Assembly (NCBI GenBank): GCA_903832205.1
Contig: CAILAH010000026.1
Coordinates: 1 to 56,703 of the forward strand
Length of the DNA: 56,703 nucleotides
Source: an uncultured Candidatus Micrarchaeota archaeon
GTDB lineage: Archaea > Micrarchaeota > Micrarchaeia > CAILAH01
Direction of reading: 5' to 3'
Shown here: positions 17,800 through 47,351 of the stretch, in pieces
Layout of the letters: the number at the start of each line of letters is the position of its first letter
How positions within the stretch are numbered: the first letter of the stretch is position 1
Notes under the pieces: generated by a model
The model's database searches: none
The model's input: only the letters and a program-made list of their open reading frames with translations
Told to the model about the DNA's origin: nothing
Made by a program: the position numbers and the translations under genes

Positions 17800-17804
17800 T
17801 AGTA

Positions 17805-18788: not shown

Positions 18789-19339
18789 TAGTACCACTTT
18801 ATATCTACGAGCGCCTGCGCAATCGGGTCGCCCAAATCGGCAATCTCCTTAAGATAGCCCATGAGTATTGGGTTGCTCCTCATCAGATCCAGATCCCTGA
18901 CGATGTGCGCCTGCTGCTCACCCGTTTCTATCGCATATAATATGTCCTTCAGTGCGGCAACGTCGCTCTTGCCGTCCAAAAAGGAGCTGATTCTCGATAA
19001 GAATGATTTGTCTTTCATATCGTTCAGCTTTGTGCGAATATCGGTAACCTTTTTGAGTATTAGATTGCGTTTTGCAAGCGCATCCGCCTGGGCTTTTGTG
19101 GCAGCCTTCTCTTCTGTCTCCCGCAGCTCTTTCACTACGCCCTTAACTATCGAGTCAAGCTCTAAGGGATTGAGCGCAGGGGTGCCTGTCCTATCAGGCT
19201 GCGGGATTGCTACAACCGGCATGCTGCCAGCTTTGGGAAGCGGTTTTCCGAATAGCCCGTCTTCCCTCACCCTCTGGAGGATAGGGTCCTCCTTTTTTTC
19301 AGGTTTCTTGGTCTTTTTGTTGAAGATTTTGAAATTCAT
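18788..19339 (-). CDS. Tagged array protein, small soluble class (paralogue of 19345..19923)
   Basis: Tag: KKEDPILQRVREDGLFGKPLP. The C-terminal ~100 aa (GKSDVAALKDILYAIETGEQ...DLGDPIAQAL) are collinear with the next gene. Confidence 0.8.
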   Translation of the reverse strand: MNFKIFNKKTKKPEKKEDPILQRVREDGLFGKPLPKAGSMPVVAIPQPDRTGTPALNPLELDSIVKGVVKELRETEEKAATKAQADALAKRNLILKKVTDIRTKLNDMKDKSFLSRISSFLDGKSDVAALKDILYAIETGEQQAHIVRDLDLMRSNPILMGYLKEIADLGDPIAQALVDIKWY

Positions 19340-19344
19340 AATCA

Positions 19345-19923
19345 TCACTTGGTTGAGATAAGCGCATTTGCAATCGGGTCGCCCAAATCAGCGAGCTCCT
19401 TCAGGAAGCACATCAGGACCGGGTTCTGCCTTACCAATTCCATATCCTTTGCGATATGCACGTACTGCTCGCCCTTCTCTATCGCATATAGTATGTCCTT
19501 CAGTGCGACCACGTCGCTCTTTCCGCCAAGTGCGGATGAAATCTTTGAGAAGAGTGATTTGCCCTCTTTCATCCCGTTCAGCTTCCCGCGTATCTCAGTA
19601 ACCTTTACTAGTATGACGCCGCGTCTCACGGCCGTATCAATCCGGGCCTTTGCGGCCTCCTTGCCGATTTCCTGCTCTTTCAGCCTGTTCATTGCTTCAT
19701 CAACAATCTTGCCAAGAACAGGGACGCCGCTTGTATCAGGTAGCGGGAGTGTCGCTCCCGGTTTTGAGCCAAGTATGCCTTCCCGTTCATACTTGTCAAG
19801 CATCGGGTCCGGCTTCTTCAGCGGGGCTTTTGCCGCGGCCGCCTTGGCCGTCGGGCCCTGAAAGTCGGTGCCCTCCTCTTCAAGTTTCTTGAGGAATGGG
19901 TCTGTGCCTTTTTTCTGCGCCAT
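19345..19923 (-). CDS. Tagged array protein, small soluble class
   Basis: Has TDPFLKKLEEEG followed by KKPDPMLDKYEREGILGSKPG. C terminus: GKSDVVALKDILYAIEKGEQ...DLGDPIANAL. Starts at ATG 19923 after TGGTGCTTAAT. Confidence 0.8.
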   Translation of the reverse strand: MAQKKGTDPFLKKLEEEGTDFQGPTAKAAAAKAPLKKPDPMLDKYEREGILGSKPGATLPLPDTSGVPVLGKIVDEAMNRLKEQEIGKEAAKARIDTAVRRGVILVKVTEIRGKLNGMKEGKSLFSKISSALGGKSDVVALKDILYAIEKGEQYVHIAKDMELVRQNPVLMCFLKELADLGDPIANALISTK

Positions 19924-19924
19924 A

Positions 19925-20725
19925 TTAAGCACCATATTTCGTTGTGATGGCACCAACAATTGCCGCGGAAATCTTTTGGTCCGTCTCATCCTTGAATACG
20001 GCCAGTGCCGCAAAGCTCTCATCAGTATCAATTTCTATAAGCGACCAAACGCATCGCATTTTTATATCGAATATATCCTTCGTAATATCCACGTTTCCCG
20101 TGTTTTTAAGATTCCTGAGCGCAACATCCCTGTAGATGGCAACTATCTGCTCAACTGCCGTTGGGTCTTTTATCACTCCAAGCCCCGCAATTATTTTTCT
20201 CGCATGGAGGCTTAGTGCGGAGACGTCAGCTCCAGTATTTGAGATATCAATGCGGTCCAAGAATCCCTTGACAACACCCGGCATCAGCGGGCACGTGATT
20301 GCCAGGTCCTTATTTAGAAAGTCAACAAGCATTTTTGGATCCAAGCTAAAACTGGAATAATAGTAGGCATACTTTCCCGCCTGGTCCGGAAAGCCAATCT
20401 TCATAAGGGTGTTGAGCGCCGCAATGACATTTGTCTCGCTCATGTTTCCATCCTGCTTGTCCAGCCCCGCTATGAGCGTTTCCGAAAGTATCCTGTTGAT
20501 GCCTCCTGAAAGTACGGGCGCAGCCACCGGGCCCCTAATCTCTCCGCAAACCTTCTTTTGTATTTCCTCAACCTGCGGAATGGCCTTGCCGAAAAGGCCG
20601 TCCTTCTCGACCTGCGCCACTATGGGGTCAACAGTGTCCCTCTTTGGCTTCTGTGCAAATGCCTGTCCGCCAGTGGGAACTGTGCCTCCATTGGCATTTT
20701 CTGGTTTCTTGGTATCTTCTGCCAT
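19925..20725 (-). CDS. Tagged array protein, soluble alpha-helical class
   Basis: Tag: DTVDPIVAQVEKDGLFGKAIPQVEE. No TM segment. Confidence 0.85.
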   Translation of the reverse strand: MAEDTKKPENANGGTVPTGGQAFAQKPKRDTVDPIVAQVEKDGLFGKAIPQVEEIQKKVCGEIRGPVAAPVLSGGINRILSETLIAGLDKQDGNMSETNVIAALNTLMKIGFPDQAGKYAYYYSSFSLDPKMLVDFLNKDLAITCPLMPGVVKGFLDRIDISNTGADVSALSLHARKIIAGLGVIKDPTAVEQIVAIYRDVALRNLKNTGNVDITKDIFDIKMRCVWSLIEIDTDESFAALAVFKDETDQKISAAIVGAITTKYGA

Positions 20726-20727
20726 GA

Positions 20728-21459
20728 TTATTCTACCCCTGCGATTTTCTTCTGTAATCTAATGTGGATTTCCTGTATTATCGGGTCCATATTCCCGATA
20801 TTCGAACAGTCGCCAAGCAGCTTCTTTGCGAAATCCGGATAGTCCTGGCAACCCTTGAACGTGATAAAATGGTCGTCCACTGTTGCATATACCATATATA
20901 GAAGCACCGGAATCTTGGGCGCAGAATAATTGATGAGCAATGTAAGGAGCTCATTCGGCTCGCGAAGCGCGATATCCTCGACTGCCTGTGTAATATTCCT
21001 CCTAATCCTGCGCTGCGCATCAATGACCTTATTGCTTTGCGACCAGGGATTCAGGGCTTTTGGGACCTTATAGCACAGGATATTTGTACCAAGATAATTT
21101 GAAAGATAGAATGCCGACTTTGCATTGCCGTGCTTTTCCAATACCTTTAATGCGTCCGAAAGCTTTTGAAGTTCGGAAAGGCTGTTTTCAATAAAAAATT
21201 TGCTGCTTCCCCAGCCCCTCGTTTTTATATTGACGGATTCAAAGACCGCCTCGGCCGCATCAATTATTGCCTTCCTCTGGTCCTGCGGAAGCTGCTGGAT
21301 TGGAGCAGAAACCGGCGCTGCGGCAGGCTTCGGAACAGGAACACTTTTCATATTGTTAATATCCTGCCCGAATATGCCGTCCTCCCTCACCCTCCTTAGG
21401 ATTGGGTCTTCGGACCTGTCCTTCTTCTTCCCGTCTCCTTTCAATAGTCTCATAACCAT
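20728..21459 (-). CDS. Tagged array protein, soluble alpha-helical class
   Basis: Starts at internal ATG 21459 (MVMRLLKGDGKKKDRSEDPILRRVREDGIFGQDI), preceded by the SD GAGGAAGTGA, 5 nt after the ATPase stop. Confidence 0.8.
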   Translation of the reverse strand: MVMRLLKGDGKKKDRSEDPILRRVREDGIFGQDINNMKSVPVPKPAAAPVSAPIQQLPQDQRKAIIDAAEAVFESVNIKTRGWGSSKFFIENSLSELQKLSDALKVLEKHGNAKSAFYLSNYLGTNILCYKVPKALNPWSQSNKVIDAQRRIRRNITQAVEDIALREPNELLTLLINYSAPKIPVLLYMVYATVDDHFITFKGCQDYPDFAKKLLGDCSNIGNMDPIIQEIHIRLQKKIAGVE

Positions 21460-21464
21460 TTGCT

Positions 21465-22778
21465 TCACTTCCTCGTTGCCGCTGCAAGCGTTGAAAGCCA
21501 CTCTGCAATAGGCGTCCATTCCTTGTCAAGCGCGCTTATCACGTCCGGGTGCAGTGCGCCGTGCTTCAGCTCGGCGAATGCCCTCGTCAATACGGTTTCC
21601 TTGTCCTTGAACCTTGCCTGTATCCTTCCAATGACCTCGTTTGCGAACAGGATGGGGTTGCCTTTGTGGTTTTGCTCAACGAACCTCGGGTCAAAAATGC
21701 CCAGGGGCGGCGCAACTATCCTGAACACCTGGAGGACATCCGCCACATCGTTCTTCATGGTCGGCGTCACTTCGCGCTCGTCATCCTGTGCCTGTGCCAA
21801 GTTCTTCGACTCGGCAACGGCCTGGAGCGCAAGCGTCAGGCGCATTATGTTCTTCATCGCACGGGTTGACGGGGCCTTTACGAAGCCGCAGCCGCCTGCG
21901 AGGTCTTCGCATCCCTTGCACACTATTGAAGGTATGCCGGACTTGATCTTCTTCTTCTCCATCTTCATCTTGCTGCACCAGTTCAGGCCGAACCTGAGGT
22001 ACTGGGCCATGAGAAGCATGTTGGAAGTTGGCTGCAGCTCGCTGATCACCTTTGACATCGCGATGAACTCGTCGTCCCACTTTATCTTCTGCTCCGCCTC
22101 GTAGACGTGGACGCGCGGGTCGTGGTCTCCCGCCAGTATGTGCGAAAAGTCGCTCGGCGAGATCTCAAAGTGGTTGAGGTCGATAATAACGTTAAGGCGG
22201 TCAAGCAGTGCGTCACCCAGCTCGAACGTGCCCGAATGCTCCTTGCCGACGTTTCCCGTAGCCAGCATGACTGCATAGCCGTCGCCAATCCTGTGCTCCT
22301 TTCCCCTGTGCCTGAACACCCCGTTTGCGAGTGAAAGCAGCTGGTTCTGCACGATTGGCGGGCCCCTGGTAATCTCATCAACCACGATGACGTGGGTGTT
22401 GAGGGTTTCGGTTAATTCATGAATATCAGCATCTGTTAATGCCTGCTTGTTGTAGAGCTTTCCGAGGTTCAGCCTCGCATAAAGCTCCTTCACTGACAGG
22501 TCGGGCTCCATCTCCAGGAACACGCCCCTGCCGCCGAATGCGCGGAAGAAGAAGTCGCTCACCGCATCCGTCTTTCCCTCACCGCGGCCTCCTGCCAAAA
22601 AGAGGTTTGACCTTGAAATGAGGCAGGCCTTGATTACGTCCTCCACCTGGAGGGACTGGCCGCGCACGGTTGCGATTACTGCCGAGTTGCGGTACTTGTC
22701 AGGCGTTGGAACCCTGGCAATACGCGGAGCCAACTCGTCAAACACGGCCTGGTTGCTAAGCTTTTGAGCAGTTGTCAT
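21465..22778 (-). CDS. MoxR-like AAA+ ATPase with a C-terminal extension
   Basis: Walker A in LAGGRGEGKT. Walker B in HVIVVDEITR. Sensor or Arg-finger region MLATGNV...GDALLDRLNVIIDL. The ~200-aa C-terminal part includes CKGCEDLAGGC. Confidence 0.85.
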   Translation of the reverse strand: MTTAQKLSNQAVFDELAPRIARVPTPDKYRNSAVIATVRGQSLQVEDVIKACLISRSNLFLAGGRGEGKTDAVSDFFFRAFGGRGVFLEMEPDLSVKELYARLNLGKLYNKQALTDADIHELTETLNTHVIVVDEITRGPPIVQNQLLSLANGVFRHRGKEHRIGDGYAVMLATGNVGKEHSGTFELGDALLDRLNVIIDLNHFEISPSDFSHILAGDHDPRVHVYEAEQKIKWDDEFIAMSKVISELQPTSNMLLMAQYLRFGLNWCSKMKMEKKKIKSGIPSIVCKGCEDLAGGCGFVKAPSTRAMKNIMRLTLALQAVAESKNLAQAQDDEREVTPTMKNDVADVLQVFRIVAPPLGIFDPRFVEQNHKGNPILFANEVIGRIQARFKDKETVLTRAFAELKHGALHPDVISALDKEWTPIAEWLSTLAAATRK

Positions 22779-22797
22779 GGGTTATTTGGCGCATAAC

Positions 22798-22812
22798 CAG
22801 TATAAATACTTT
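22798..22812 (-). promoter_or_regulatory. TATA element for the ATPase-led transcription unit
   Basis: On the minus strand, AAAGTATTTATACT is centred about 27 nt upstream of ATG 22778, in the only 58-nt gap in this part of the array. Confidence 0.5.
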
Positions 22813-22836
22813 ACGGTGCCTCACAATGCCCGAAAA

Positions 22837-23625
22837 TCAGGCTTTGCCAGTAAAATCCGGCTTGGCTTCACTGGCAAAACCAAGCTCGGCCTTCTGGGCA
22901 AAATCAGACTCTAGAGGATTAGATTCCTTCCTTTGGTAAAACATCTTCTCAAGCTCCCACGCCTTTGAGTAGCCCGCAACCGCAAGCTCGTGGAGGCCTT
23001 TCCTTAAATCCGCATCATCCTTGATATCAGTAAGAATAGCGCTATTGAATACCTTCCCATTAGCCAATTCATTGAGTGCGCCTGCAATAAGCTTCGAGTC
23101 CTCCACTGCTTTTTCCATCTGCCGCTCAAGCTCGCGGCCTACAATGATTCCGCTTATTATCATGTTAACGGAAATGCTGCCGGCAAAAACCGATAGCAGG
23201 AAGTGATTGGAAAAAGCCACTGAAAGCCAGGTAATGATGCCCCCTATAACTCCGGCAGTGGTCAAAAAAGGCGCAAGCGCGCTCCTATCTATCAAGGCAA
23301 CCCTCCTCTTCTCCCCTTTCTTCATTATTTCCCCGCCAAGGGCGTCCATCCTCCTGCTCATCGTCATCCGGTATATTGGGTCAGCAGGCTTTTCGCACAG
23401 CTTTTCCCACTCCTTTCCCAACGCCTCCCTTTTCATTATTAGAGCCGCAGTACCAATGCTGACCTGCTTCTCCCCGTCCTTTGCCATCCCCGGCCTTGCC
23501 CCAAGGATGCCTTCCGAATCGTACATATCCAGGATAGGGTCCCTTTTGGGAAATGGCTTTTTTACCTCTGCCGTGGCTGTCCTTGCAGTCTGCGACAATG
23601 GTGCTGCCTTCCCCCTAATAACCAT
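22837..23625 (-). CDS. Tagged array protein, membrane-hairpin class
   Basis: Tag: FPKRDPILDMYDSEGILGARPGMAKDGEKQVSI. Hydrophobic pair: LAPFLTTAGVIGGIITWLSVAF..LLSVFAGSISVNMIISGIIVG. Confidence 0.85.
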   Translation of the reverse strand: MVIRGKAAPLSQTARTATAEVKKPFPKRDPILDMYDSEGILGARPGMAKDGEKQVSIGTAALIMKREALGKEWEKLCEKPADPIYRMTMSRRMDALGGEIMKKGEKRRVALIDRSALAPFLTTAGVIGGIITWLSVAFSNHFLLSVFAGSISVNMIISGIIVGRELERQMEKAVEDSKLIAGALNELANGKVFNSAILTDIKDDADLRKGLHELAVAGYSKAWELEKMFYQRKESNPLESDFAQKAELGFASEAKPDFTGKA

Positions 23626-24428
23626 TACAATCCCTTCATCCTTTGCTGGAGCTGCTGCGCCTCCGCGTGGCCTTGTGAGGCGAGGCCGTTAACGTAATCT
23701 ATGAATACTTTCTCCTTCGCAGCTTTCCTGAGGAGCTTGTCAGAAATGGGCTCCCCCGCCTCAAGCGCCTTTTCGGCATCAAGCGCATTCTTCAGCCCGA
23801 AAAGCGCGATGATGTGAATTATTATCGGCCTGTTAAAGAAGTATATCAGCCCCGTTCCTGCTGTAAGCATTGCCAATGATGCATTGAATGTAACGTGATC
23901 ATCGGCACTGCGAATGAACATCCAGCCCGAAGCCGCCATAAAGCCCGACACAATGCTTGGTATGTCGCTTATGGACAATGCCGCCTTGCTGAATTTAGAC
24001 CCGCCCTTTATCTGCTGGTCTGACTTATCAAAAAATTCCTTCTTCACCTGCGCTATCTTCTCCTTTTTCTCCTTTCCCGCCTGGCAGCGTGAGTGCTGCA
24101 GCGCCCTCTCAATCCTCCTCATCCTGTAATGCCTTTGCAGCTCTGCCTTCTCAAAAGCAACCTGCCTCTGCCAGGCAGCGGCCTCATCAGGGGTCACTAT
24201 TTCGCCCTGGCGCCCCAGCGCCTTTCCCGGCGGGCAGCCAAACAGGCCCTCTTTATTATACCTGTCAAGAATGGGGTCGGGGAGGGAAGCCCTGCGTGAT
24301 GTTACCATAGTAACATTGGCTTCACTCGCTTTCTTTTTTCCAATATCCGCAACCGCTTTTGCATCCTTTCCCCTTTCTCCCTCACCGGAAACGGGCGGGC
24401 TTTTTTGTTTTAGCGAGAGCATCATCAT
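23625..24428 (-). CDS. Tagged array protein, membrane-hairpin class
   Basis: Tag: NVTMVTSRRASLPDPILDRYNKEGLFGCPPGKALGRQGEIVT. Hydrophobic segments IPSIVSGFMAASGWMFI and LAMLTAGTGLIYFF..IIIHIIALFGL. C-terminal ALEAGEPISDKLLRKAA. Confidence 0.85.
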   Translation of the reverse strand: MMMLSLKQKSPPVSGEGERGKDAKAVADIGKKKASEANVTMVTSRRASLPDPILDRYNKEGLFGCPPGKALGRQGEIVTPDEAAAWQRQVAFEKAELQRHYRMRRIERALQHSRCQAGKEKKEKIAQVKKEFFDKSDQQIKGGSKFSKAALSISDIPSIVSGFMAASGWMFIRSADDHVTFNASLAMLTAGTGLIYFFNRPIIIHIIALFGLKNALDAEKALEAGEPISDKLLRKAAKEKVFIDYVNGLASQGHAEAQQLQQRMKGL

Positions 24429-24434
24429 ATGCAC

Positions 24435-25241
24435 CTACATGCGGCCGATGTTTCTTTCCCTTCTCTTTTTTGCATCGTAAAGTTTTTCATTTAAGACAGC
24501 ACTCATGCGCCCGTACAGCTCGGCCGCTTCTGCGGAGCCTTCATCTTCGAGCTTCTTAAAGCAGTCATGCAGCTCCTCACCATAATAGTTACAGTTGAGT
24601 ATGTTGCTGTCCCTGCACATGGCCACCGCGGCCTTGAGGGCATCATCGCTTATCTTCTCGCCTTTCTCAAACGCATCCAGCACCCTGATGCCAGCCATGG
24701 CCGCCGTGCGGCGCTTTCGCGACCACACTACATCCGGCTTATCAAATGTCATCGCTATCCGCACGGTTGCTGCAAAAAGGATCAGGCCGCCAGCGGCGTA
24801 GAGAGGGACACTTAGCCACCAGCTCTTCTGTGGCAATGCTAACACGACCAGCGACGCCCCCATTCCCATGATTACTGCGCCAATTTTCCAAAAGCTCCGT
24901 ATCTGCTTGGTTGCATTCTCGACCTGCATTTCCAACATGCGCCTGGTATCGCTCAGTAACTCTTCCCTTTTCCTGCGCTTCGTATCTTCGTCACTCACCA
25001 GCTTTTCCTGCACCGTCTTCTCAGCGAGCTCACCCGCCACGTCAAGCGTCACTTCCTTCCCTTTCACTGCCACCATTCCTGGTTTTGCTCCAAGAATCCC
25101 CTCTTCCCTGTATTTGTCTAATATGGGGTCGGGGAAGCGGGGCTTTTTCGATGTTACTATAGTAACATTGGCTTCACTTGCCTTCCTATTATTAGTATTA
25201 GTTAGTACCGGCTTTTTCTGAATATCCTTCAGCCCTGCCAT
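24435..25241 (-). CDS. Tagged array protein, membrane-hairpin class
   Basis: Tag: NVTIVTSKKPRFPDPILDKYREEGILGAKPGMVAVKGKEVTL. Hydrophobic pair: IGAVIMGMGASLVVLAL..LSVPLYAAGGLILFAATV. C-terminal LDAFEKGEKISDDALKAAV. Confidence 0.85.
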   Translation of the reverse strand: MAGLKDIQKKPVLTNTNNRKASEANVTIVTSKKPRFPDPILDKYREEGILGAKPGMVAVKGKEVTLDVAGELAEKTVQEKLVSDEDTKRRKREELLSDTRRMLEMQVENATKQIRSFWKIGAVIMGMGASLVVLALPQKSWWLSVPLYAAGGLILFAATVRIAMTFDKPDVVWSRKRRTAAMAGIRVLDAFEKGEKISDDALKAAVAMCRDSNILNCNYYGEELHDCFKKLEDEGSAEAAELYGRMSAVLNEKLYDAKKRRERNIGRM

Positions 25242-25261
25242 CGTTGAAAATTGGGATAATT

Positions 25262-25277
25262 AGATGTTTTAAACCTT
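25262..25277 (-). promoter_or_regulatory. Internal TATA element of the array
   Basis: On the minus strand, AAGGTTTAAAACATC is centred about 29 nt upstream of ATG 25241. It lies in a 181-nt non-coding gap (25242-25422). Confidence 0.45.
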
Positions 25278-25422
25278 CTGATTATAGACGGGCTGCATAA
25301 TGCCTCAATTGACGAAAGTTATAGAAAAGTATAACTTTGGTCGTTTCATCAAAAATCGCTTACGACTGAACAATCTGCCTGGCGCTTTAAGCCCTCATCA
25401 GCCGGATGCTTAAGCCTTGCCA

Positions 25423-26178
25423 TCACGGGTAGGGAGGGAAGGGGAACTTTCCCGCGCCCCTCATTCCCGCCGTGCTGAGGAGCTTGACCTGTTCCTGAAA
25501 TTCCTTATCCTTTTCCACCAGCTTTATGTCCTTTGCATCCGGCTCAAGATCGCCCTGGATGTTTTTTAGGATGCGCAGCTTATTCTCGACATGGGCGATT
25601 TCTGCTTTACAATTAACCCGGCCAAGGGACGTGTAATAAGTATAGACTAGCATTCCCATGAATGTCAGCACGCCTAATAAATCAGTAAGAACATAATGCT
25701 CGGACCCGAACCTAACCACGATGCTTACTATGGGCGCAACAGTCCCGATAGCGCCGCACCAAAGCGACGCATTAAACCGCCTGTGGTCCTTGCGCTCGGA
25801 TTCAAGCTCCAAGCCAACCTCCCTGAAAATATGATCAAATAAAACCGGCCCTGCATTCTGCTTGAATGCATCATCCGCCCTTCCTGACCTAAGCATCCTT
25901 CCTGACCTAAGCATGCTTATTATTTGCCGTATATTCTCTTTTTCTGCGCGCTCTCTCGCTTCAGCCATCTCTTCATCATGCGCCTTTGCATCCTTGAGCG
26001 TAATCTCCTTCCCGTCCTTGTCCTTTACCATGCCGGGCTTTACGCCAAGAATTCCCTCATCATTATATCTGGAAAGCATCGGGTCAATCCTATGAATAGA
26101 GGTCCTTTTACTCCCTGCATCCGCTGCCGTTTCCTTGCTGAAAACCTTTCTAATGCCCGCAAACCTAGGGCTGTGCAT
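25423..26178 (-). CDS. Tagged array protein, membrane-hairpin class
   Basis: Tag: HRIDPMLSRYNDEGILGVKPGMVKDKDGKEITL. Hydrophobic pair: LWCGAIGTVAPIVSIVV...LLGVLTFMGMLVYTYY. Start is 26178 or 26187. Confidence 0.85.
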   Translation of the reverse strand: MHSPRFAGIRKVFSKETAADAGSKRTSIHRIDPMLSRYNDEGILGVKPGMVKDKDGKEITLKDAKAHDEEMAEARERAEKENIRQIISMLRSGRMLRSGRADDAFKQNAGPVLFDHIFREVGLELESERKDHRRFNASLWCGAIGTVAPIVSIVVRFGSEHYVLTDLLGVLTFMGMLVYTYYTSLGRVNCKAEIAHVENKLRILKNIQGDLEPDAKDIKLVEKDKEFQEQVKLLSTAGMRGAGKFPFPPYP

Positions 26179-26899
26179 CGTCTTCATCCTCGGTCATCTC
26201 ATACTCGTACAGTGCGCGGGCTTCCGCGGCTCCCTTGACATCCGCCTTCTCAAGCTTGTTCAGGACTTCTACCATTTCATCCAGGCCCCTTGTCTTTGCA
26301 ATGTCCTTGGTGTCCACAACCGCCCCTTCCTTCATTGATTTTACCACGCGCATCGCCGCTTCCATTTTTCTCTTCTTGAATATTGGAAAGCCCAACTTCT
26401 TCAGTAATGCTACTGCACAAATCGCGCAAAATCCCGAGGCAATATATAGGCCGCAATCCACCAGGAACAGTATGGGCACGCGCAATACTGCTTCAGAGGC
26501 GTTGAGGAAACCCCCGGCAGTGCCGGTTACAACTGCTGCTCCGGAAAGCCAGGATATCCCGTTTACAGCAAACTGCATTTTCTCATGCTTCTCGGCCAGA
26601 TCTCCCTCAACCGATTTGAATACAAACACCAATTTCATCCTAGTTAACTCGTTTAATTGCGCCTCCGTCTCAGCCTTCTCTTCGGCTTTTTGCGTTGCAA
26701 TTTTCTCTTCCTTCTCCTTTGCAAAAAGCTCCTTTGCCCTCTCGACCGTAATCTCTTCGCCCCCCTTTCCCTTCACAAGGCCCGGTTTTGCCCCAAGTAT
26801 CCCTTCATTATCATACTTATCAAGAATAGGGTCAACCTTGCGGATAGGCTTCTTGTTGTCTTTTTTCTCCGCTGGCTTTCCATCCTTGAATATTGGCAT
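26165..26899 (-). CDS. Tagged array protein, membrane-hairpin class (MxI[LF]K..KPAEK subfamily)
   Basis: MPIFKDGKPAEKKDNKKPIRKVDPILDKYDNEGILGAKPGLVKGKGGEEITV. Hydrophobic pair: ISWLSGAAVVTGTAGGFL...VPILFLVDCGLYIASGFCAICAVALL. Confidence 0.85.
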   Translation of the reverse strand: MPIFKDGKPAEKKDNKKPIRKVDPILDKYDNEGILGAKPGLVKGKGGEEITVERAKELFAKEKEEKIATQKAEEKAETEAQLNELTRMKLVFVFKSVEGDLAEKHEKMQFAVNGISWLSGAAVVTGTAGGFLNASEAVLRVPILFLVDCGLYIASGFCAICAVALLKKLGFPIFKKRKMEAAMRVVKSMKEGAVVDTKDIAKTRGLDEMVEVLNKLEKADVKGAAEARALYEYEMTEDEDDAQP

Positions 26900-26904
26900 G
26901 AAAA

Positions 26905-27651
26905 TCATTCCTCTTTTATCGCCTCGATCTTCTTCCCCAGAATATTTTCTACGCGCTCACGCAATTTTTTGGCCTCATCAGTGCCGGTTTCCTCCGCTAA
27001 CCGCGCAATGGATTGGTTCAGCTTGTAATTAAAGGACAGGGCTTTGATAAGGTCTTTTTCAGATATTTTTTCACCTTTTTCATAAGCATCAAGAATCTTC
27101 AGCCCAGCTTTCCAGCCGGAGAAATGCTCTATACACCACCGTGTCCCGGACTCATCATCATCGTTCATATCGCCCATGTCAAAAATGACCCGAAATGCTG
27201 CGCTGCCAGCCACAAGGGTCATTATAACACCTATTATGCCCAGTGGGATAAGTATCACAACATCAGAAAAATAATACGCCGCTCCGGCTAAAGACGGCCC
27301 CATGACTCCTAAAATGAAATTAAAACGCAGGAAAGACTTAGCATGGCCCTTGTACCCTTCTTGATCCTCTTTTATGGAATTCCTCGCCTCGTTTATTATC
27401 TCAAGCTCCCGTGCACGCCGTTCCTTGAGCGCCATTTCTTTTTTCTCAAGCTCCAATTCTGCGCTTTCCTTTTTTGCTGCAATCTCCGCCTGCTCGATTG
27501 TCAGCTGCTCGCCTTTCTTTCCTTTCACAAGGCCGGGCCGTGTACCTAGAATTCCTTCCTCCCTATACTTATCAATAATAGGGTCAACCCTGCGGATAGG
27601 CTTCTTATCTGCATTCTTCTCCGCTGGCTTTCCATTCTTCAATATTTCCAT
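26905..27651 (-). CDS. Tagged array protein, membrane-hairpin class (MxI[LF]K..KPAEK subfamily)
   Basis: MEILKNGKPAEKNADKKPIRRVDPIIDKYREEGILGTRPGLVKGKKGEQLTI. Hydrophobic pair: FNFILGVMGPSLAGAAYYF..VVILIPLGIIGVIMTLVAGSAAF. C-terminal LDAYEKGEKISEKDLIKAL. Confidence 0.85.
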   Translation of the reverse strand: MEILKNGKPAEKNADKKPIRRVDPIIDKYREEGILGTRPGLVKGKKGEQLTIEQAEIAAKKESAELELEKKEMALKERRARELEIINEARNSIKEDQEGYKGHAKSFLRFNFILGVMGPSLAGAAYYFSDVVILIPLGIIGVIMTLVAGSAAFRVIFDMGDMNDDDESGTRWCIEHFSGWKAGLKILDAYEKGEKISEKDLIKALSFNYKLNQSIARLAEETGTDEAKKLRERVENILGKKIEAIKEE

Positions 27652-27662
27652 AATCATTTCCC

Positions 27663-28445
27663 CTATTCCATGAGAATTTTTTTGATGCGATTGTGCAGCG
27701 CCAGTGCTTTCTCATTGCCCGTGGTTTCCGCAAGCTCCTTCATGCAACGCACAAGTTTCGAATCTGTTTCCAGGCCAAAAAGCTCTTTCAGCAACTTGTG
27801 GTCCAGGTCAAGCGCAGTCCTAAGCTTCTCATCGCTGATTTCCTCGCCCTTTTCGTAGGCGCCAAGCACCTCCAGCGCCGCTTTGCTGCTGTATATATTG
27901 CTGATTGAGTTTCTAGCATTTTCTATTTTATAGCGGTCCTGCCGGTCATCTGCTGTGCCAAAGACCATTTCTTTCATATAACCCAGCGTTCCAACAACTG
28001 TTAAAACCCCCAAAATGCCGACAAATCCCCACGACCAATGGGACATGAAATGGGCCGTTGTGAACAGTGCTGCACTAACCGAATTTATGATGCTAATATC
28101 CCTCAGGAACACGCGGGCTTCCTTTCTCCCTTCATTATAATCGCTGGTTATGGAATTCCTTGCATTGCTTAGTATATCCGCCGCTCTTTTGCTCAGCTCC
28201 ATCTCCTTGGCACGCTGCACCTGAAGTGCTTCCTCTCTCGCAATCCTCTCCAAATCCTCCTTCTCTTTCCTTTCCGCATCCTTTGCCTCTTCGACGGTCA
28301 GCTCCTTTCCATTCCTCTTTATCTTGCCTGGCCTCACTCCAAAAAGGCCTTCCTCCCTATACTTATCAATAATAGGGTCAACCCTGCGGATAGGCTTTTT
28401 CTCTGCAATCTTTTCCGCTGGTTTTTCACTCTTTAATATTGGCAT
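27663..28445 (-). CDS. Tagged array protein, membrane-hairpin class (MxI[LF]K..KPAEK subfamily)
   Basis: MPILKSEKPAEKIAEKKPIRRVDPIIDKYREEGLFGVRPGKIKRNGKELTV. The 5' end overlaps the upstream gene by ~20 nt. C-terminal LGAYEKGEEISDEKLRTAL. Confidence 0.85.
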   Translation of the reverse strand: MPILKSEKPAEKIAEKKPIRRVDPIIDKYREEGLFGVRPGKIKRNGKELTVEEAKDAERKEKEDLERIAREEALQVQRAKEMELSKRAADILSNARNSITSDYNEGRKEARVFLRDISIINSVSAALFTTAHFMSHWSWGFVGILGVLTVVGTLGYMKEMVFGTADDRQDRYKIENARNSISNIYSSKAALEVLGAYEKGEEISDEKLRTALDLDHKLLKELFGLETDSKLVRCMKELAETTGNEKALALHNRIKKILME

Positions 28446-29235
28446 TGGAATCATCCTTGCTATTGTAGATTTCAATCTTGCACTTTTTCTTCTCGAGTAT
28501 AATCGCTTGCGCGCGCTCAAGCAGGGCTTTCGCTTCTGTAGAGTCCGCCTCCTCCGCTAGCGCTTTCAGGCAACTGCGCAAATCCCCATCGAGATTAACC
28601 GCCTTCATAAGGTCCCTATCGGTTATGGGTTCGCCCTTTTCGAACGCATCAAGCACCCTCTGTTCCACTTTCCAGGCGGAATATTTGCCAAAAGCATTCC
28701 TTGCTTGGGAGAAATCATTCTTATGATAGTAATCGAAATTATCGTCGAAGAAAGCAGCGTAAAGCATTTTATAGGTTGTACTAATACATGCAAACCCAAC
28801 GATACATAGAAGCGGTGTCCATACTAGGTGGGAAGCATATAATCCCCCTGCAATAACTCCTGGACCTGACAAGCCGACGAATGTTGCCAGAAGCGAAAAA
28901 TTCCGTATCTCCTCTTTCCCTTCCTTTATGTTGTCTTCAATGGAGCTCTTTGCCGTGCTTATTATCTCAAGCTTCCTTTTGCCCTGCTCCATCTCCTTGG
29001 CACGCTGCTCAAGCAACGCCTCTTCCCTCGCCGCTTTCTCCAAATCCTCCTTTTCCTTCTTTTCTGCGGCCGTTAATTCCTGAACGGTCAGCTCTTTCCC
29101 GTTCTTTGTTACCATTCCTGGCTTTGTGCCAAGGATTCCCTGTTCATCGTATTTGCCCAGAATAGGGTCAATCCTGCGGATAGCCTTCTTATCTGCAATC
29201 TTTTCCGCTGGTTTTTCACTCTTCAATATTGCCAT
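28426..29235 (-). CDS. Tagged array protein, membrane-hairpin class (MxI[LF]K..KPAEK subfamily)
   Basis: MAILKSEKPAEKIADKKAIRRIDPILGKYDEQGILGTKPGMVTKNGKELTV. Hydrophobic pair: LLATFVGLSGPGVIAGGLY...TPLLCIVGFACISTTY. C-terminal LDAFEKGEPITDRDLMKAV. Confidence 0.85.
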   Translation of the reverse strand: MAILKSEKPAEKIADKKAIRRIDPILGKYDEQGILGTKPGMVTKNGKELTVQELTAAEKKEKEDLEKAAREEALLEQRAKEMEQGKRKLEIISTAKSSIEDNIKEGKEEIRNFSLLATFVGLSGPGVIAGGLYASHLVWTPLLCIVGFACISTTYKMLYAAFFDDNFDYYHKNDFSQARNAFGKYSAWKVEQRVLDAFEKGEPITDRDLMKAVNLDGDLRSCLKALAEEADSTEAKALLERAQAIILEKKKCKIEIYNSKDDSNANIKE

Positions 29236-29240
29236 AATCA

Positions 29241-29975
29241 TCAGTTCACATTCCTTAGAAGCGCCTCTGTGCGCGCGAACAGGATCTTGGCGCGTTCGGA
29301 ATTTGCCTGTGCAAGGTCCTTGATACAGGTGTAGAGGTAGCCCGTGTGGTAAATCCCCTCACGCAGCTCCCCATCACTGATCTCCTTCCCCTTCTCAAGC
29401 GCATCAAGGGCTTTCAGCGCCGTCTCCAACGACCTCATCTCCCTTCGGGTGTGGAAAATGTCGGGAAGAAAAGTTCCTGACCTCATATAGGAGCCAACGA
29501 CAACAGAAAAATTCCACATGCCCGTTATGAATGCTTGAAGGGCCGATATGGCTTCTAGTATTGGGCTTTCTGTCGTAAATGCCAAAACGGTTGATTCAAC
29601 AAATAAGAATGCAAAAGTGGAGCAGAGGATTATGTTTCTCTTCCATTCACTGGTTTTTCCCTTAAGCGTGACTTTCATATTATTCCTTGCATCTGCGATT
29701 ATATCTTGCTCCCTGGCGTTTTGCTCCCGGGCTGCCTTCGCTTTTTCCACATTCTCCATGTGCGCTTCCAGTTTCCTATCAAGCGCGGCATCCTTTTTTA
29801 CAAATGCATCTGCCTGCTCGGCTGTCATCTCCTTTCCGTTTACCTTAACCATTCCCGGCTTCACGCCGAGAATACCTTCCTCGCCATACTTGCTCAGGAG
29901 CGGGTCCAGGGGCTTTCGGCCTTTCCCGTTATTGGAATTCAGCGACAATGTGGTTGATTTTTGTGTGATTGCCAT
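29241..29975 (-). CDS. Tagged array protein, membrane-hairpin class
   Basis: MAITQKSTTLSLNSNNGKGRKPLDPLLSKYGEEGILGVKPGMVKVNGKEMTA. The middle is hydrophobic. C-terminal LDALEKGKEISDGEL. Confidence 0.85.
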   Translation of the reverse strand: MAITQKSTTLSLNSNNGKGRKPLDPLLSKYGEEGILGVKPGMVKVNGKEMTAEQADAFVKKDAALDRKLEAHMENVEKAKAAREQNAREQDIIADARNNMKVTLKGKTSEWKRNIILCSTFAFLFVESTVLAFTTESPILEAISALQAFITGMWNFSVVVGSYMRSGTFLPDIFHTRREMRSLETALKALDALEKGKEISDGELREGIYHTGYLYTCIKDLAQANSERAKILFARTEALLRNVN

Positions 29976-29986
29976 CCACTTACACC

Positions 29987-30772
29987 TTACGTATCAATTA
30001 CGGGTTTGGATTTCATCCATCTCTTCCTGCCATCCGCGTCGTCAATGTCAAGGACCAGGCCACCCTGCTTGAACATCTCGCCCCTGATGTAATACGCCGC
30101 CCTGCTGCCCTTCGCCATAAACTCATGAAGCGTTTCTATAAATTTCCAATCATTCTTCAGAACGCTAATTTCCTTCTGGAGATTCATGCAGTTGTCTGCT
30201 TCTATCGCCCCAATCAGTTTTTTCATCGCCTTGATTTCTTGGTTTAGCCGCCTTTGCATAAGCTCTTCAACTGCAATTATGGCAAATATCCCGCTACCAA
30301 AGAATGCGGGTATGCTAAGGGTTGCAAACAACGCCGGAAAATCAAGCAAAATGGATGCTGTAACTATGCTTCCCGCCGTCAAGCCGCCGGCTATTAGTGA
30401 CTTAATTATTGTTGAATTTGATAAGGCATCTGGAACTTTCTTTTCTGGAAGAACCCCGCTCAGGAATGACCGCGCCTTGCTTGATATTTCATTTGGATCG
30501 CCAACATTATGCCCCATTGTCTTGAGCCCTTCCTCTGCCTCGGCTAGAATCTCCATATTGAATTTTTCCGGCGGTCTTTCTTTTGCCTTCTTCTCTGCAA
30601 TCTTATTTGCCTCTTTGAGCGTGAGTTCCTTTCCCCTCTCTCCCTTAACCATTCCTGGCTTGGCGCCGAGTATTCCCTCAGCAGTATACTTATCGAGTAT
30701 CGGGTCGGGAAGCTTCCTGCCTTTCCCGTTACCAGAATTCAGCGACAATGCGATTGGTTTTTGTGACAACAC
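29987..30772 (-). CDS. Tagged array protein, membrane-hairpin class
   Basis: GTG/TTG start. (M)LSQKPIALSLNSGNGKGRKLPDPILDKYTAEGILGAKPGMVKGERGKELTL. ~50-aa bilobed hydrophobic block: IIKSLIAGGLTAGSIVTASILLDFPALFATLSIPAFFGSGIFAIIAV. Confidence 0.8.
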   Translation of the reverse strand: MLSQKPIALSLNSGNGKGRKLPDPILDKYTAEGILGAKPGMVKGERGKELTLKEANKIAEKKAKERPPEKFNMEILAEAEEGLKTMGHNVGDPNEISSKARSFLSGVLPEKKVPDALSNSTIIKSLIAGGLTAGSIVTASILLDFPALFATLSIPAFFGSGIFAIIAVEELMQRRLNQEIKAMKKLIGAIEADNCMNLQKEISVLKNDWKFIETLHEFMAKGSRAAYYIRGEMFKQGGLVLDIDDADGRKRWMKSKPVIDT

Positions 30773-30781
30773 ATTATCAAC

Positions 30782-31615
30782 TCAGGGGATTATTGGGCCA
30801 TGCCCTTTTGGTAGCTGCGCTTGGCGTTGGAGATCTTCCTTGCGCTCGTTCACGAACGCCCTGTTATCGAGCTTCTCAAGCTCGTCGAGTATCATCTTGG
30901 CGGTGGCAATGCCTCCCATAGTGCTTTCAGGCACGAATGAACGGTAGCCGTTCTTCAGTTTCTTGAGAATCTGCCTCAAATCATCATCGTGCATTACCTG
31001 TGGGAGCTTGTCCTTAATGCCTTCAATTCCTTTGTTCTGCTTCACTGCCTCAATAATTTCGCGCTTGATTTTAGACTCATTTTTCATTTTCGCCTCATAG
31101 CGCATGAACATAAGCGCTGTAACCAGTAGTGTCGCAAGGGCGGCATAAATCTTTGGGAATGAATAAAAATGATGCGTGATTGCAAGCGGAACAAAACAAA
31201 AGATGCCTGAAATACCAACGGATTTCGTGGTGTTGAATACCCTGCGGGCAGTTTTCTTATCGGCTTCAGCCGAGTACAACTCCGTCTTTGCTTTCCTTAT
31301 CATCGCATTGATGTGGATTTCGGACGGGACTTCAAGCCCCGAAAGCACCTGGGTTTCATTATACTTTTCAATCTCTTCCGCCACCGGCTTGTATACAATT
31401 GTGGCCTGCACTTCAGCCTCTTCCTTTTTCGCCTGCTCTTTTGCCTGCTTAACTGTGAGCATTTCGCCCTTCTTTCCCTTCACCATTCCCGGCTTTGCAC
31501 CGAGGATTCCCTCATCATCGTACATGCCGAGGATTGGGTCGGGCAGCTTTTGCGCAGCCTTAGGTTTCTTATTAGGAATACGGAAGATCTTGTGTAGCAT
31601 ATCCTTTGCTGCCAT
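30782..31615 (-). CDS. Tagged array protein, membrane-hairpin class (first gene of the array)
   Basis: Tag: QKLPDPILGMYDDEGILGAKPGMVKGKKGEMLTV. Hydrophobic pair: VGISGIFCFVPLAIT...IYAALATLLVTALMFM. Confidence 0.85.
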   Translation of the reverse strand: MAAKDMLHKIFRIPNKKPKAAQKLPDPILGMYDDEGILGAKPGMVKGKKGEMLTVKQAKEQAKKEEAEVQATIVYKPVAEEIEKYNETQVLSGLEVPSEIHINAMIRKAKTELYSAEADKKTARRVFNTTKSVGISGIFCFVPLAITHHFYSFPKIYAALATLLVTALMFMRYEAKMKNESKIKREIIEAVKQNKGIEGIKDKLPQVMHDDDLRQILKKLKNGYRSFVPESTMGGIATAKMILDELEKLDNRAFVNERKEDLQRQAQLPKGHGPIIP

Positions 31616-45054: not shown

Positions 45055-46158
45055 CTAAGGAATGCGCAGCCAAAGCACACCCTGCCAATTATGGTTAACA
45101 AAAAGCCGGTTAAATTCTGCAGCAACTTTCCTTCTAAAATTATATGTGTTGGCAAACCGCGCATAGGCAAGCCATCCACAAAAGCTATGCACCGTCTGCT
45201 CTCTTGTAACTGCACACCTATCAAGTTTGCGCCTCAACCGCTCAAGGTGCTTCCAAATCCTATTGGCATTACTTTTCTTTAGAAGCCTGTAAGAAAAGAA
45301 AATCCTGAAGCCAAGTAGCGTTATTCCCTTTCTTAACGGGACAACTTTTGACTTTTCAGGGTGCAGTTCTATTTTCAGGCAGGCTGCGAGGAATTCATTT
45401 ATCTTTTTTAGCCACCCCATCAGAATCTCCTTCCTTGCATGCAACAGCACAAAATCATCAACATAACGGAGATAGTGCCTTGCCTTCAACTCGTGCTTCA
45501 CGAAATGGTCAAGCTCGTTCAGGTAGACGTTGGCAAAGAATTGGGAGGTTAAATTCCCAAGCGGCATTCCCTTTCCAGGTATGGAAGCCTTGTGGTTTTG
45601 CAGTATTTTTCTTACAAGGCAGATTACCCGTGCATCCCTAATCTTCCGCTCAAGTATGCCAATCAGGACTTCGTTGTCTACCGTGTCAAAATAGCGCCGT
45701 ATGTCTGCCTTTAGGGCATAGCCCATTATGGCATTCCTGTTTGTCTGGTCTGGCAATAGTCTTCCATTTCCGGATACTTTTCGCACGAATCCTTCAAAGC
45801 GAATTATCGCTGGGTGTGTGCCCTTGCCCTTCCGGTTGGCAAACGAATCGTAGATAAAGCTCTTTTCAAAAATCGGCTCAAGAATATTGCATATGGCGTG
45901 GTGCACAACCCTGTCCCTGAAATGGGAGGCACTGATTACCCTTGTCTTCGGGTCCCTTATCACAAAGGTGGTTAGCGACCTTGGGAAATATGCACTGGTC
46001 TCCAGCTCATGCTGAAGCTCTTTTAGGTTCTTCTCCAGGTCCCTTTCAAACTCCTTAACATAATCCTTGTTTGTTTTTCTTTTTCTTGCTTTTTTGTAGG
46101 CGAGAAGGAGATTCTCATAAGAACAGAGGTTTGAATACAGGTTTTTGTAGGTCTTCAT
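45055..46158 (-). CDS. DGR-type reverse transcriptase
   Basis: Starts at ATG 46158 (MKTYKNLYSNL). RT blocks ADIRRYFDTVD, MPLGNLTSQFFANVYL ([IL]GxxxSQ, the DGR hallmark, versus QGxxxSP in group II introns) and RYVDDFVLL. 367 aa, with no maturase or endonuclease tail. Confidence 0.85.
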   Translation of the reverse strand: MKTYKNLYSNLCSYENLLLAYKKARKRKTNKDYVKEFERDLEKNLKELQHELETSAYFPRSLTTFVIRDPKTRVISASHFRDRVVHHAICNILEPIFEKSFIYDSFANRKGKGTHPAIIRFEGFVRKVSGNGRLLPDQTNRNAIMGYALKADIRRYFDTVDNEVLIGILERKIRDARVICLVRKILQNHKASIPGKGMPLGNLTSQFFANVYLNELDHFVKHELKARHYLRYVDDFVLLHARKEILMGWLKKINEFLAACLKIELHPEKSKVVPLRKGITLLGFRIFFSYRLLKKSNANRIWKHLERLRRKLDRCAVTREQTVHSFCGWLAYARFANTYNFRRKVAAEFNRLFVNHNWQGVLWLRIP

Positions 46159-46211: not shown

Positions 46212-46289
46212 CGAAACCAGAGCCGGGGTCGTTGTTGCAGTTGATGTTCCTCCTGTTGTTGAGGTTGTTGTTGTCGCGAGCCACGGGCC
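46212..46289 (-). repeat. DGR template repeat (TR)
   Basis: The coding strand is GGCCCGTGGCTCGC GAC AAC AAC AAC CTC AAC AAC AGG AGG AAC ATC AAC TGC AAC AAC GACCCCGGCTCTGGTTTCG. It has nine AAC codons and lies 54 nt upstream of the RT ATG. It is read through only artefactually by ORF 45055..46335. Confidence 0.8.
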
Positions 46290-46482: not shown

Positions 46483-46526
46483 TTGCAAAAATCGCGCGAA
46501 GCCCTTTCGGGCTCCTTTTTTTGCAA
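46483..46526 (-). promoter_or_regulatory. Long hairpin downstream of the VR (DGR target-recognition stem-loop and/or terminator candidate)
   Basis: TTGCAAAAA/TTTTTGCAA outer arms enclose GAGCCC-GAAA-GGGCTT. It begins ~25 nt after the target-gene stop and is followed on the minus strand by a T run. Confidence 0.5.
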
Positions 46527-46550: not shown

Positions 46551-47351
46551 TTAAACGCCACCCACCCCGAAACCAGAGCCGGGGTCGCCGCTGCAGCCGA
46601 TGTTCCTCCTGCCGTCGAGGAGGCCGTCGCCGTCGCGAGCCACGGGCCTAACACCTATCCCGCTTATCCTGTAAAACCAGCGCTTTTCATTATCATTCAA
46701 TTGGGCGAATATTTGGGCGCCAACCTGTAATGGGACGCGCGTGTTTGGGTCAACCTGGCCTGCACCTCCTGATTCTTGTATTAGTCCGCTAAGAACAATT
46801 ATTGTTTTTGGAATCACGACCATCTTTCCATTTTCTTCTTTTACTTCTTCGGGGTCTATGAATAATCCTGCTCCCTTCACGCCTAGTGCTTGCAGTGGAA
46901 CATTCTTCGCCTCAAGTGTCCAGCCGCTTTCACTGTCAATGACATCCAGGCCCTGGACAAACATTCCATCTTTTTCTGGATATGCAAGTATCTCCCTTGC
47001 CCATGCAGCATAGTAGCCCTTCTTGTTCAGCTCTTTCCATTTCTCAGAGCCGACTAAATAATCATCGTGAAGGACGATTGAGGGGAGATGAAGGCCTTGT
47101 GCTGCAACGAGCCTTACTGATTCAAGGTAGCCTGCGTTTATTACCTTGTCACCTGTTCCCGTGATTAGCTTAATTTCCTTGCCTAAGTCGTTTGCCAAAT
47201 ATGTGGATGAGGGCAGGATTACCCTTCCCGGTTCTGGTGTGGGCTTCACCTCTTTGAACGGCTTGCTAAGGTCAACGCTGCGGACATCCTGGCCGAATAG
47301 GCCTTCCCTTTCAATCGCATCCAGTATCGGGTCCCTTAGTTTTGGAGCCAT
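46551..47351 (-). CDS. DGR target (variable) protein carrying the array-type N-terminal tag
   Basis: N terminus MAPKLRDPILDAIEREGLFGQDV, near-identical to the ankyrin array member's tag. The C terminus ..FYRISGIGVRPVARDGDGLLDGRRNIGCSGDPGSGFGVGGV* contains the VR. Starts at ATG 47351 after AGGTG. Confidence 0.85.
   Translation of the reverse strand: MAPKLRDPILDAIEREGLFGQDVRSVDLSKPFKEVKPTPEPGRVILPSSTYLANDLGKEIKLITGTGDKVINAGYLESVRLVAAQGLHLPSIVLHDDYLVGSEKWKELNKKGYYAAWAREILAYPEKDGMFVQGLDVIDSESGWTLEAKNVPLQALGVKGAGLFIDPEEVKEENGKMVVIPKTIIVLSGLIQESGGAGQVDPNTRVPLQVGAQIFAQLNDNEKRWFYRISGIGVRPVARDGDGLLDGRRNIGCSGDPGSGFGVGGV
46568..46648 (-). repeat. DGR variable repeat (VR)
   Basis: Aligns to the TR over 78 nt plus one extra CTC codon. 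All 13 substitutions sit at TR adenines (AAC to GGC, GAC or AGC). The invariant 3' block GACCCCGGCTCTGGTTTCG (IMH-like) is identical in both. Confidence 0.8.

Follow-up and report, generated by a model that had tools for sequence, protein, structure and literature searches.

An N-terminal peptide shared by a retroelement-diversified protein and a MoxR/vWA gene array in a DPANN-like archaeon

Why would the hypervariable target of a diversity-generating retroelement (DGR) begin with the same short peptide as the products of a gene array encoded 15 kb away? The question is raised by a 56.7-kb, 50% GC piece of archaeal chromosome (contig CAILAH010000026.1; "the window" denotes this whole stretch of 56,703 nucleotides), which encodes TFB, Kae1/TsaD, aIF5A and two tRNAs. 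The host is probably a small, symbiotic-type archaeon of a DPANN-like lineage; relatives of both the DGR target and the DGR reverse transcriptase (RT) are found in Micrarchaeota. A preliminary description of the target gene had proposed that the shared peptide, hereafter the tag, links hypervariation to the tagged-protein system, and that it might be an address label for delivery. We find that the tag is a conserved and apparently selected module common to the target and the array, as the first proposal holds. Delivery appears less likely than docking: the reading that we favor, with a probability of about 0.5 and by analogy with characterized systems, is that the tag is a client-docking peptide of a cytoplasmic remodeling machine encoded in the array, made up of a MoxR-type AAA+ ATPase and a HExxH protein with a vWA-like domain (the HExxH-vWA protein).

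A peptide common to array proteins and a DGR target

The tag was described by the regular expression DP[IVMLF][ILVMF]x4-8[EDQ]G[ILVM][FLIM]G, run on a six-frame translation of the window. It matches 24 times, always on the minus strand and 6–50 residues after a plausible start codon, as compared to zero matches in 200 trials in which the amino acids of the six frames were shuffled. Twenty-three matches fall in consecutive genes at 11.2–31.6 kb; the 24th lies on the DGR target, as the preliminary description had recognized. The aspartate, the proline and both glycines are invariant in all 24 copies (the type-A tag is exemplified by KLPDPILGKYEEQGILGAKPGMVK), with the conserved glycines flanking the tag; the region is charged and hydrophilic, and its distance from the start codon varies among the tagged proteins. 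Once the tag is removed, BLAST leaves the bodies of the 24 proteins in at least 16 unlinked groups, and the tag is for this reason, as judged from the sequences, the best-conserved part of otherwise unrelated proteins.

The DGR target starts with MAPKLRDPILDAIEREGLFGQDVRSVDLSKPF, and an AGGTG Shine-Dalgarno-like site supports the ATG at 47351 as its start codon. When the target was queried against the window by tblastn, the matches were the target itself, its paralogue at 8011–8844 (48% identity) and the N terminus of the tagged ankyrin-repeat protein (58.5% identity over 41 amino acids). The paralogue had been described as the only one. This holds within the window, but paralogue-like proteins occur beyond it in ENA assemblies (P0010, P0012 and P0020), with P0010 and P0012 deriving from sample ERZ1426812, which also possesses a second contig with an identical target.

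An AlphaFold2 (AF2) model of the target (mean predicted local distance difference test score, pLDDT, of 86) comprises a helix at residues 8–16, a segment with pLDDT below 50 at residues 30–49, and a core at residues ~55–266. Because the modeled linker between the tag helix and the core is disordered, the tag is predicted to be accessible, as an isolated short helix that precedes a disordered linker and a folded core. In keeping with the preliminary description, a Kyte-Doolittle window scan identified neither a transmembrane (TM) nor a signal-like hydrophobic stretch in the target, and no hydrophobic N-terminal stretch in the soluble tagged proteins of the array; it is on this simple scan, and not on a dedicated signal-peptide predictor, that the absence of a Sec/Tat or archaeal class III signal is judged. 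Searches of the target against Pfam, NCBIfam and PADLOC, and a sequence profile search of the target family against the PDB, returned zero matches. The best Foldseek match of the target model in the PDB, the C-type lectin carbohydrate-recognition domain of mincle, is not significant (E 0.08, TM-score ~0.2), and nothing significant was returned from BFVD.

The DGR is genuine, with an RT, a template repeat (TR), and a variable repeat (VR) located at the 3′ end of the target open reading frame (ORF) and mismatched to the TR at adenines. TR and VR differ by substitutions at TR adenines alone, with eight of the nine AAC codons altered to GGC, GAC or AGC. The VR region is likewise hypervariable across the target homologues. 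Within the window this TR has a single VR: the paralogue was considered as a second live VR and rejected, as it has kept AAC AAC codons but shows divergence at non-A positions in its 3′ part. Relative to the TR, the VR contains one extra codon (CTC), and the longer form is also present in the decayed paralogue (8011–8112); this suggests either codon loss from the TR since the latest retrohoming event or slippage of the VR. No small Avd-like ORF was found between or beside the target, TR and RT (45000–47700); the only small ORF nearby, at 47473–47676 on the plus strand, encodes a coiled-coil-like protein of 67 amino acids with no NCBIfam match. A hairpin downstream of the VR resembles the hairpin required for DGR target recognition in the Bordetella phage, and may serve that function here or act as a terminator. 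Directly upstream of the target, a gene at 47760–51449 on the minus strand encodes a 1229-amino acid protein that starts with a signal-like segment and ends in a Roadblock/LC7 domain; it also possesses several TM helices, long coiled coils and a motif, CPVCG...CDSCG, that resembles a zinc ribbon.

The array encodes TM-hairpin proteins (one or two TM helices predicted), two small soluble proteins, a single ankyrin and alpha-repeat proteins; the integral membrane hairpins among the tagged proteins number at least 15, and their tag sits in the soluble part at the N terminus. The MoxR ATPase that interrupts the array has intact Walker A (GRGEGKT) and Walker B (VVDE) motifs. The 726-amino acid protein encoded at the downstream end of the array possesses a complete metal ion-dependent adhesion site (MIDAS) signature, DTSGS...GGT...SDG, in its C-terminal domain; its N-terminal domain combines the HEIGH motif with invariant H, C and H residues, and the two domains are separated by an acidic, low complexity linker of ~200 amino acids rich in Gly, Glu, Asp and Lys (window 9700–10300). 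This gene is followed by those for the target paralogue, for an ankyrin that lacks the tag, and for a stand-alone paralogue of the vWA domain, with 27% identity to that of the 726-amino acid protein. The 726-amino acid protein, a 914-amino acid protein and the scanned array members have zero matches in Pfam, NCBIfam and PADLOC; the MoxR and the stand-alone vWA protein are likewise unmatched in NCBIfam and PADLOC, and a sequence profile of the vWA family finds no match in the PDB.

Two further features were observed in this region. The element GTGATACTNATG, with a Shine-Dalgarno-like GGTGAT, recurs just before the ATG of several array genes (for instance at 15273–15284, 17800–17811 and 14443–14454), because of which mechanical ORF calls start with spurious "MILM/VILM" extensions. 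Adjoining the array, at 5208–6491 on the plus strand, lies a gene for a LysM-containing lytic transglycosylase of the SLT type; the enzyme is directed at peptidoglycan, although the archaeon lacks murein.

Table 1. Positions of the principal features in the window
Feature	Position	Strand	Description
DGR target gene	46551..47351	-	266 aa; tag at N terminus, then, in the AF2 model, a disordered linker and a confidently folded core; VR at C terminus
Tag module of target, LRDPILDAIEREGLFGQDVRSVDLSKPF	47256..47339	-	Nearest to the tag of the ankyrin, 21/28 residues identical
Core motif of target tag, DPILDAIEREGLFG	47292-47333	-	Within the tag module
VR	46568..46648	-	Encodes the last ~27 residues of the target
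TR	46212..46289	-	78 nt, 9 AAC codons, just upstream of RT
DGR reverse transcriptase	45055..46158	-	367 aa; RVT_1 1.3e-20; PADLOC RT 8e-51; GNLTSQ motif
Hairpin GGAGCCC-GAAA-GGGCTTC	46498..46515	-	7 bp, GAAA loop, ~50 nt downstream of VR, then T-run
Tagged array	11252..31615	-	23 tagged genes, interrupted by the MoxR gene
Tagged ankyrin-repeat protein	14451..15272	-	Starts MVQKKRDPMLDAIEREGLFGTDVSTVDTKKPF; tag nearest to that of the target
MoxR-type AAA+ ATPase	21465..22778	-	Mid-array; PF20030 bpMoxR 27.2 bits (cut-off 27), AAA_5, AAA_3
HExxH-vWA protein	8864..11044	-	726 aa, downstream end of array; HEIGH zinc-motif N domain, linker, vWA-like C domain
Target paralogue	8011..8844	-	48% identity; directly after the vWA gene; different conserved N-terminal peptide; decayed VR-like C terminus
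Stand-alone vWA paralogue	6543..7337	-	264 aa, MIDAS DGSGS; VWA_2 E 0.0016 (below cut-off)

Age, selection and spread of the tag

One account of the shared peptide would be coincidence, or a recent modular copy, without any function in common: an N-terminal duplication between the ankyrin and the target, or an element acting at the level of nucleotides or translational coupling. Some nucleotide-level regularity does exist, in the form of the Shine-Dalgarno-like element upstream of several array genes. However, among the first 32 codons of the target and the ankyrin, 13 are identical, 10 differ synonymously and 9 nonsynonymously; with 10 synonymous differences the tag is unlikely to be a recent in-genome copy, and the comparison points to an old tag under purifying selection. 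The variable distance between tag and start codon likewise speaks against this account.

The tag is also found outside this genome. A protein search returned 22 relatives of the target, among which P0003 (67% identity), P0013 (47%) and P0014 (43%), the latter two from a JGI metagenome, carry a tag of the form K/RDPILDxI/VxxxGLFG. Eight other relatives, together with the paralogue in the window, start with a different N-terminal peptide, LIDPKKKxxVLQRIKDxKxPF, and the remaining relatives have no N-terminal extension. A further tagged protein, P0002, was rejected as independent evidence, as its N half equals P0001 and its C half equals P0010; with an N half identical to the target of the window, it is either an assembly chimera or the product of recombination between a tagged and an alternatively tagged paralogue. 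Downstream of P0013, at 2630–2840 of locus L031, we observed at least four spaced copies of a ~16-nt motif resembling TTGTACCCTGTACCTCA.

When 1.84 billion representative proteins were searched with a profile built from the 24 tags, 41 matches were obtained at E<=1e-3. About half of them are proteins of the window itself and a few are artefacts of repeats; the ~16 foreign tagged proteins resemble those of the array in kind (TM-hairpin, alpha-repeat and ankyrin). Several of the foreign ankyrins share the extended tag of the target, EG[IL]FGxD[VI]SK[VI]D[LV]SKPF. One foreign ankyrin of 319 amino acids, P0024, has three tandem tags of three different subtypes ahead of its repeats, suggesting that tags are modular and possibly multivalent. 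A word-index protein search with an alignment of 44 tag sequences yielded 215 candidates, none of which scored. An alignment of all the tags contains no conserved stretch long enough to serve for scanning; metagenomes were scanned with the pattern EGI[LF]G[AV]KPG from the tag, and with the vWA alignment, and relatives were found with neither. A viral origin was considered and found no support, scans of viral contigs with the tag and with the target family being empty. On these sequence comparisons the tag is real, very rare and lineage-restricted. The recent duplication confined to one genome, which the preliminary description had named as the outcome that would undo its proposal, does not agree with the synonymous differences or with the tagged homologues in other assemblies; together with the foreign tagged proteins, these data already contradict a coincidental copy, which we consider exceedingly improbable.

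N-terminal peptides at loci encoding MoxR and vWA proteins

Comparative loci couple N-terminal peptides to MoxR and vWA genes. The closest MoxR (50% identity by BLASTP) is encoded on a JGI contig, L028, where it is followed by a protein that starts ...ENPIIKQAAQDGVFGKKLPEV and has a HEAT-like C terminus, and then by a 726-amino acid HExxH-vWA orthologue (46% identity). By its sequence, this start is a clear variant of the tag on an alpha-repeat-type protein, and L028 would represent a minimal triad of MoxR, tagged client and vWA protein. The triad is preceded, at 2121–4752 of that contig, by genes for a prenyltransferase-like protein and a dynamin-like GTPase, both absent from the window's array.

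The target family itself was traced to 27 loci in species-representative genomes, almost all from Micrarchaeota, with 33 homologues. Among these 33, an N-terminal extension of ~60 amino acids (MRKxLIIDPNRxFxxKPLG...KPEPEP), reminiscent of the GLFGKPLP tags, is present only at L002 and L027. Precisely these two homologues adjoin the machinery, a HExxH-vWA protein at L002 and a MoxR at L027. Three canonical target-TR-RT cassettes from DPANN/Micrarchaeota genomes (L001, L006 and L014) resemble that of the window in order, in target (~40–52% identity) and in RT (61–64% identity, the RTs adjoining the target homologues); unlike the window's target, their targets possess neither an N-terminal extension nor a tag, and there is no MoxR or vWA gene within 10 kb.

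A DGR combined directly with the two genes is present on L035, a DPANN contig from ENA (33% GC), where a MoxR that is ~30% identical to that of the window lies beside a DGR RT that is 53% identical to the window's RT. This DGR is verified by one TR (9595–9675) and five VRs, with 63 of 63 mismatches falling on TR adenines, and its five targets flank the HExxH-vWA gene. The first 30 residues of the targets (LSNLSPERRARMEQVFRRTEEQKAE) are 70–87% identical, while their bodies belong to three types that are 22–29% identical; two pairs of targets are near-duplicates. The complete DGR is interleaved with the MoxR and HExxH-vWA genes at 8493–17656, just downstream of a tyrosine-recombinase-like gene and an NTase/HEPN-like pair, and the unit may be mobile. 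On the Woesearchaeota contig L034 the order is MoxR, target-like, HExxH-vWA and target-like, and the target-like proteins share an N-terminal peptide of their own while their C termini diverge. The MIDAS residues DxSGS...T...SDG are invariant in four vWA orthologues, which adjoin MoxR at L028, L034 and L035. These loci suggest that shared N-terminal client peptides are a general, hitherto undescribed feature of DPANN MoxR-vWA operons.

The same loci bear on the proposal that the tag is a delivery or secretion label, which would send the DGR-diversified protein, together with the ankyrin, alpha-repeat and membrane-hairpin proteins, along a pathway dedicated to export or to injection into a host, and would amount to a rewritable DPANN host-interaction toolkit. 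Such a role would accord with the DPANN-like lineage of the host and the Micrarchaeota relatives of target and RT, with the wall-lytic SLT-LysM enzyme in the array neighborhood, and with the soluble tagged proteins that lack a signal-like hydrophobic N terminus in the simple hydropathy scan. Ankyrin repeats are typical of symbiont effectors, and an ankyrin is among the tagged proteins. Yet the scanned proteins of the operon included no recognizable translocon, secretion ATPase or pilus component; the partners that are conserved, MoxR and vWA proteins, are known as cytoplasmic chaperones, and N-terminal extensions track adjacency to their genes. At L035 and L034, which follow the same N-peptide logic, only MoxR and vWA are present, and the at least 15 integral membrane hairpins among the tagged proteins would make unlikely cargo for injection. 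We thus regard the address-label proposal as unlikely.

The gene neighborhoods of L034 and L035 raise a functional alternative that is compatible with a docking mechanism. Toxin-antitoxin, HEPN/NTase, Fic, STAND-like and integrase genes surround both loci, as might be expected for a conflict system of the ternary type described by Kaur and Dore, in which the DGR target would be an antigen sensor, the tagged hairpins would be effectors held or released by MoxR-vWA, and the tag would replace the bacterial effector-associated adaptor domains. The MoxR of the window just reaches the cut-off of PF20030, the family for the MoxR of ternary conflict systems, and bacterial DGR targets have been proposed as sensors in such systems (PMC10907252). 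Against this, Pfam and PADLOC detected no VMAP, EAD, peptidase, TIR or nuclease effector domain among the core and array proteins scanned (not all array members), and a 20-kb array with 23 clients is unlike the described ternary systems. We hold this alternative to be rather improbable.

The HExxH domain offers another possibility, that the tag is a processing site or pro-peptide at which the domain cleaves clients, in the G-Phi-Phi-G / KPG segment, so that the tag is removed on activation. The HEIGH motif and the invariant H, C and H residues of the N domain, and the invariant glycines that flank the tag, are what such a site would predict. The L034 orthologue, in which the motif reads HGCGH, is missing the catalytic Glu as judged from its sequence, the HExxH domain matches no known peptidase family, and with many client tags lying 6–50 amino acids from the N terminus the cleavage context is not conserved. 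Processing is, in our estimate, decidedly improbable.

A docking model and its relation to known systems

Taken together, a model for the tag emerges in which it is a client-docking peptide. In characterized MoxR-vWA pairs, the MIDAS site of the vWA protein captures an exposed or extended peptide of the substrate, and MoxR remodels or releases the substrate (PMC7159879). It is because of this property, and of the accessibility of the target's tag in the AF2 model, that we read the tag as a docking peptide. The tag would be a short helical linear motif, with D-P as the N-cap, approximately two helical turns, and [ED]-G-Phi-Phi-G as the C-cap. By analogy with the characterized pairs, the vWA MIDAS site, or the ATPase, would capture the exposed N-terminal peptide of each client, and ATP hydrolysis would then remodel, assemble or release that client. 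In this lineage the peptide would have spread over ~24 unrelated proteins, including the DGR target, and a binding domain rewritable by the DGR would be placed in the same machine or complex as the membrane-hairpin, ankyrin and alpha-repeat clients. Physical binding, the receptor of the tag (the vWA MIDAS, the HExxH domain or MoxR) and the biological purpose are what we infer here; as to the purpose, the system may act as a defense sensor or in host or partner interaction.

Several observations weigh against the docking model. The DGR target lies outside the operon, and the tag is the single line of evidence that couples it to the MoxR-vWA machine. The correlation between N-terminal extension and adjacency to MoxR or vWA genes in the target family is carried by the two positive loci only, L002 and L027, and the N-terminal peptides of L034 and L035 have no demonstrable homology to the tag of the window. 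The assignment of the 726-amino acid protein as a vWA protein, made from its MIDAS motif and its paralogy to the stand-alone protein (27% identity and a sub-threshold VWA_2 match), is a probable one, and an AF2 model of its vWA domain, built from a two-sequence alignment, reached a pLDDT of only 37.

Little has been established about what DGRs do for the cell, above all in DPANN archaea, which have them in abundance. From the loci described here, the DGR targets of at least two DPANN lineages are embedded in, or tagged for, a putative MoxR-vWA machine. A peptide of 14–20 residues would define the client set of that machine and predicts a binding partner for a hypervariable protein, and the annotation rule that follows, an N-terminal extension with MoxR/vWA adjacency, could be used on hundreds of "hypothetical" DPANN proteins. 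More speculatively, and with doubt in our own minds, a hitherto undescribed DPANN client-tag system can be envisaged in which MoxR/HExxH-vWA recognizes a lineage-specific N-terminal peptide and thereby assembles or deploys a large, fast-evolving repertoire of membrane hairpins, ankyrins and alpha-repeat proteins, among others, at the envelope or at the symbiont-host interface, with DGRs repeatedly recruited, as in the window and at L035, to provide reprogrammable recognition modules. If true, archaea would possess, in such a system, a counterpart to the adaptive diversification of receptors that acts in trans.

Comparison with known systems places these findings more closely. The preliminary description was aware of no earlier account of a DGR target with a shared delivery tag. 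Its claim to novelty needs to be moderated. DGR targets with export signals are known: LdtA of Legionella is a DGR target with a Tat/lipobox export signal, a lipoprotein. LdtA and the target of the window are both DGR-diversified binding proteins with an N-terminal targeting element. In contrast to the standard Sec/Tat/lipobox signals of LdtA, the tag is hydrophilic, predicted to be helical, common to cytoplasmic-type repeat proteins and associated with MoxR-vWA.

The nearest mechanistic analogy may be the Rea1/Midasin system, in which the MIDAS domain recognizes a common N-terminal MIDAS-interacting, ubiquitin-like (UBL) domain of Ytm1 and Rsa4. There, as proposed here, different clients with a common N-terminal module dock on the MIDAS/vWA of a MoxR-clade AAA+ remodeler, and the ~200-amino acid acidic linker of the 726-amino acid protein is reminiscent of the acidic linker that precedes the Midasin MIDAS domain. 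Rea1/Midasin differs in that it functions in ribosome biogenesis, its docking unit is a folded UBL domain rather than a short helix, and its clients are not hypervariable.

DGR targets wired to MoxR-vWA are likewise known, from ternary systems of multicellular bacteria (PMC7159879, Kaur et al. 2020; PMC10907252, Dore et al. 2024), in which the target is usually fused to vWA or adjoins MoxR and adaptor domains, the effector-associated domains (EADs), connect the modules (PMC7159879, PMC10907252). The DGRs of Candidate Phyla Radiation (CPR) bacteria and DPANN archaea were stated not to be linked to conflict-system domains (PMC10907252), and the other DGR surveys considered make no mention of MoxR/vWA in DPANN. 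Like the bacterial VMAP ternary systems, the system of the window would couple a MoxR AAA+ ATPase and a probable vWA/MIDAS protein, surrounded by modular and variable accessory proteins, to a DGR target whose VR is C-terminal. The differences are that a ~20-amino acid (14–20) peptide acting in trans takes the place of a fused vWA or an adaptor domain; that VMAP and EAD are undetected in the proteins scanned, and the vWA protein carries an unclassified HExxH domain; that the target scaffold has no detectable CLec match; and that the host is a DPANN-type archaeon. We thus view the tagged target and its array as an archaeal, in-trans variant of the bacterial DGR/MoxR-vWA ternary theme, the new element being a short shared peptide in trans that is also present on 23 non-DGR proteins, in a DPANN archaeal setting.

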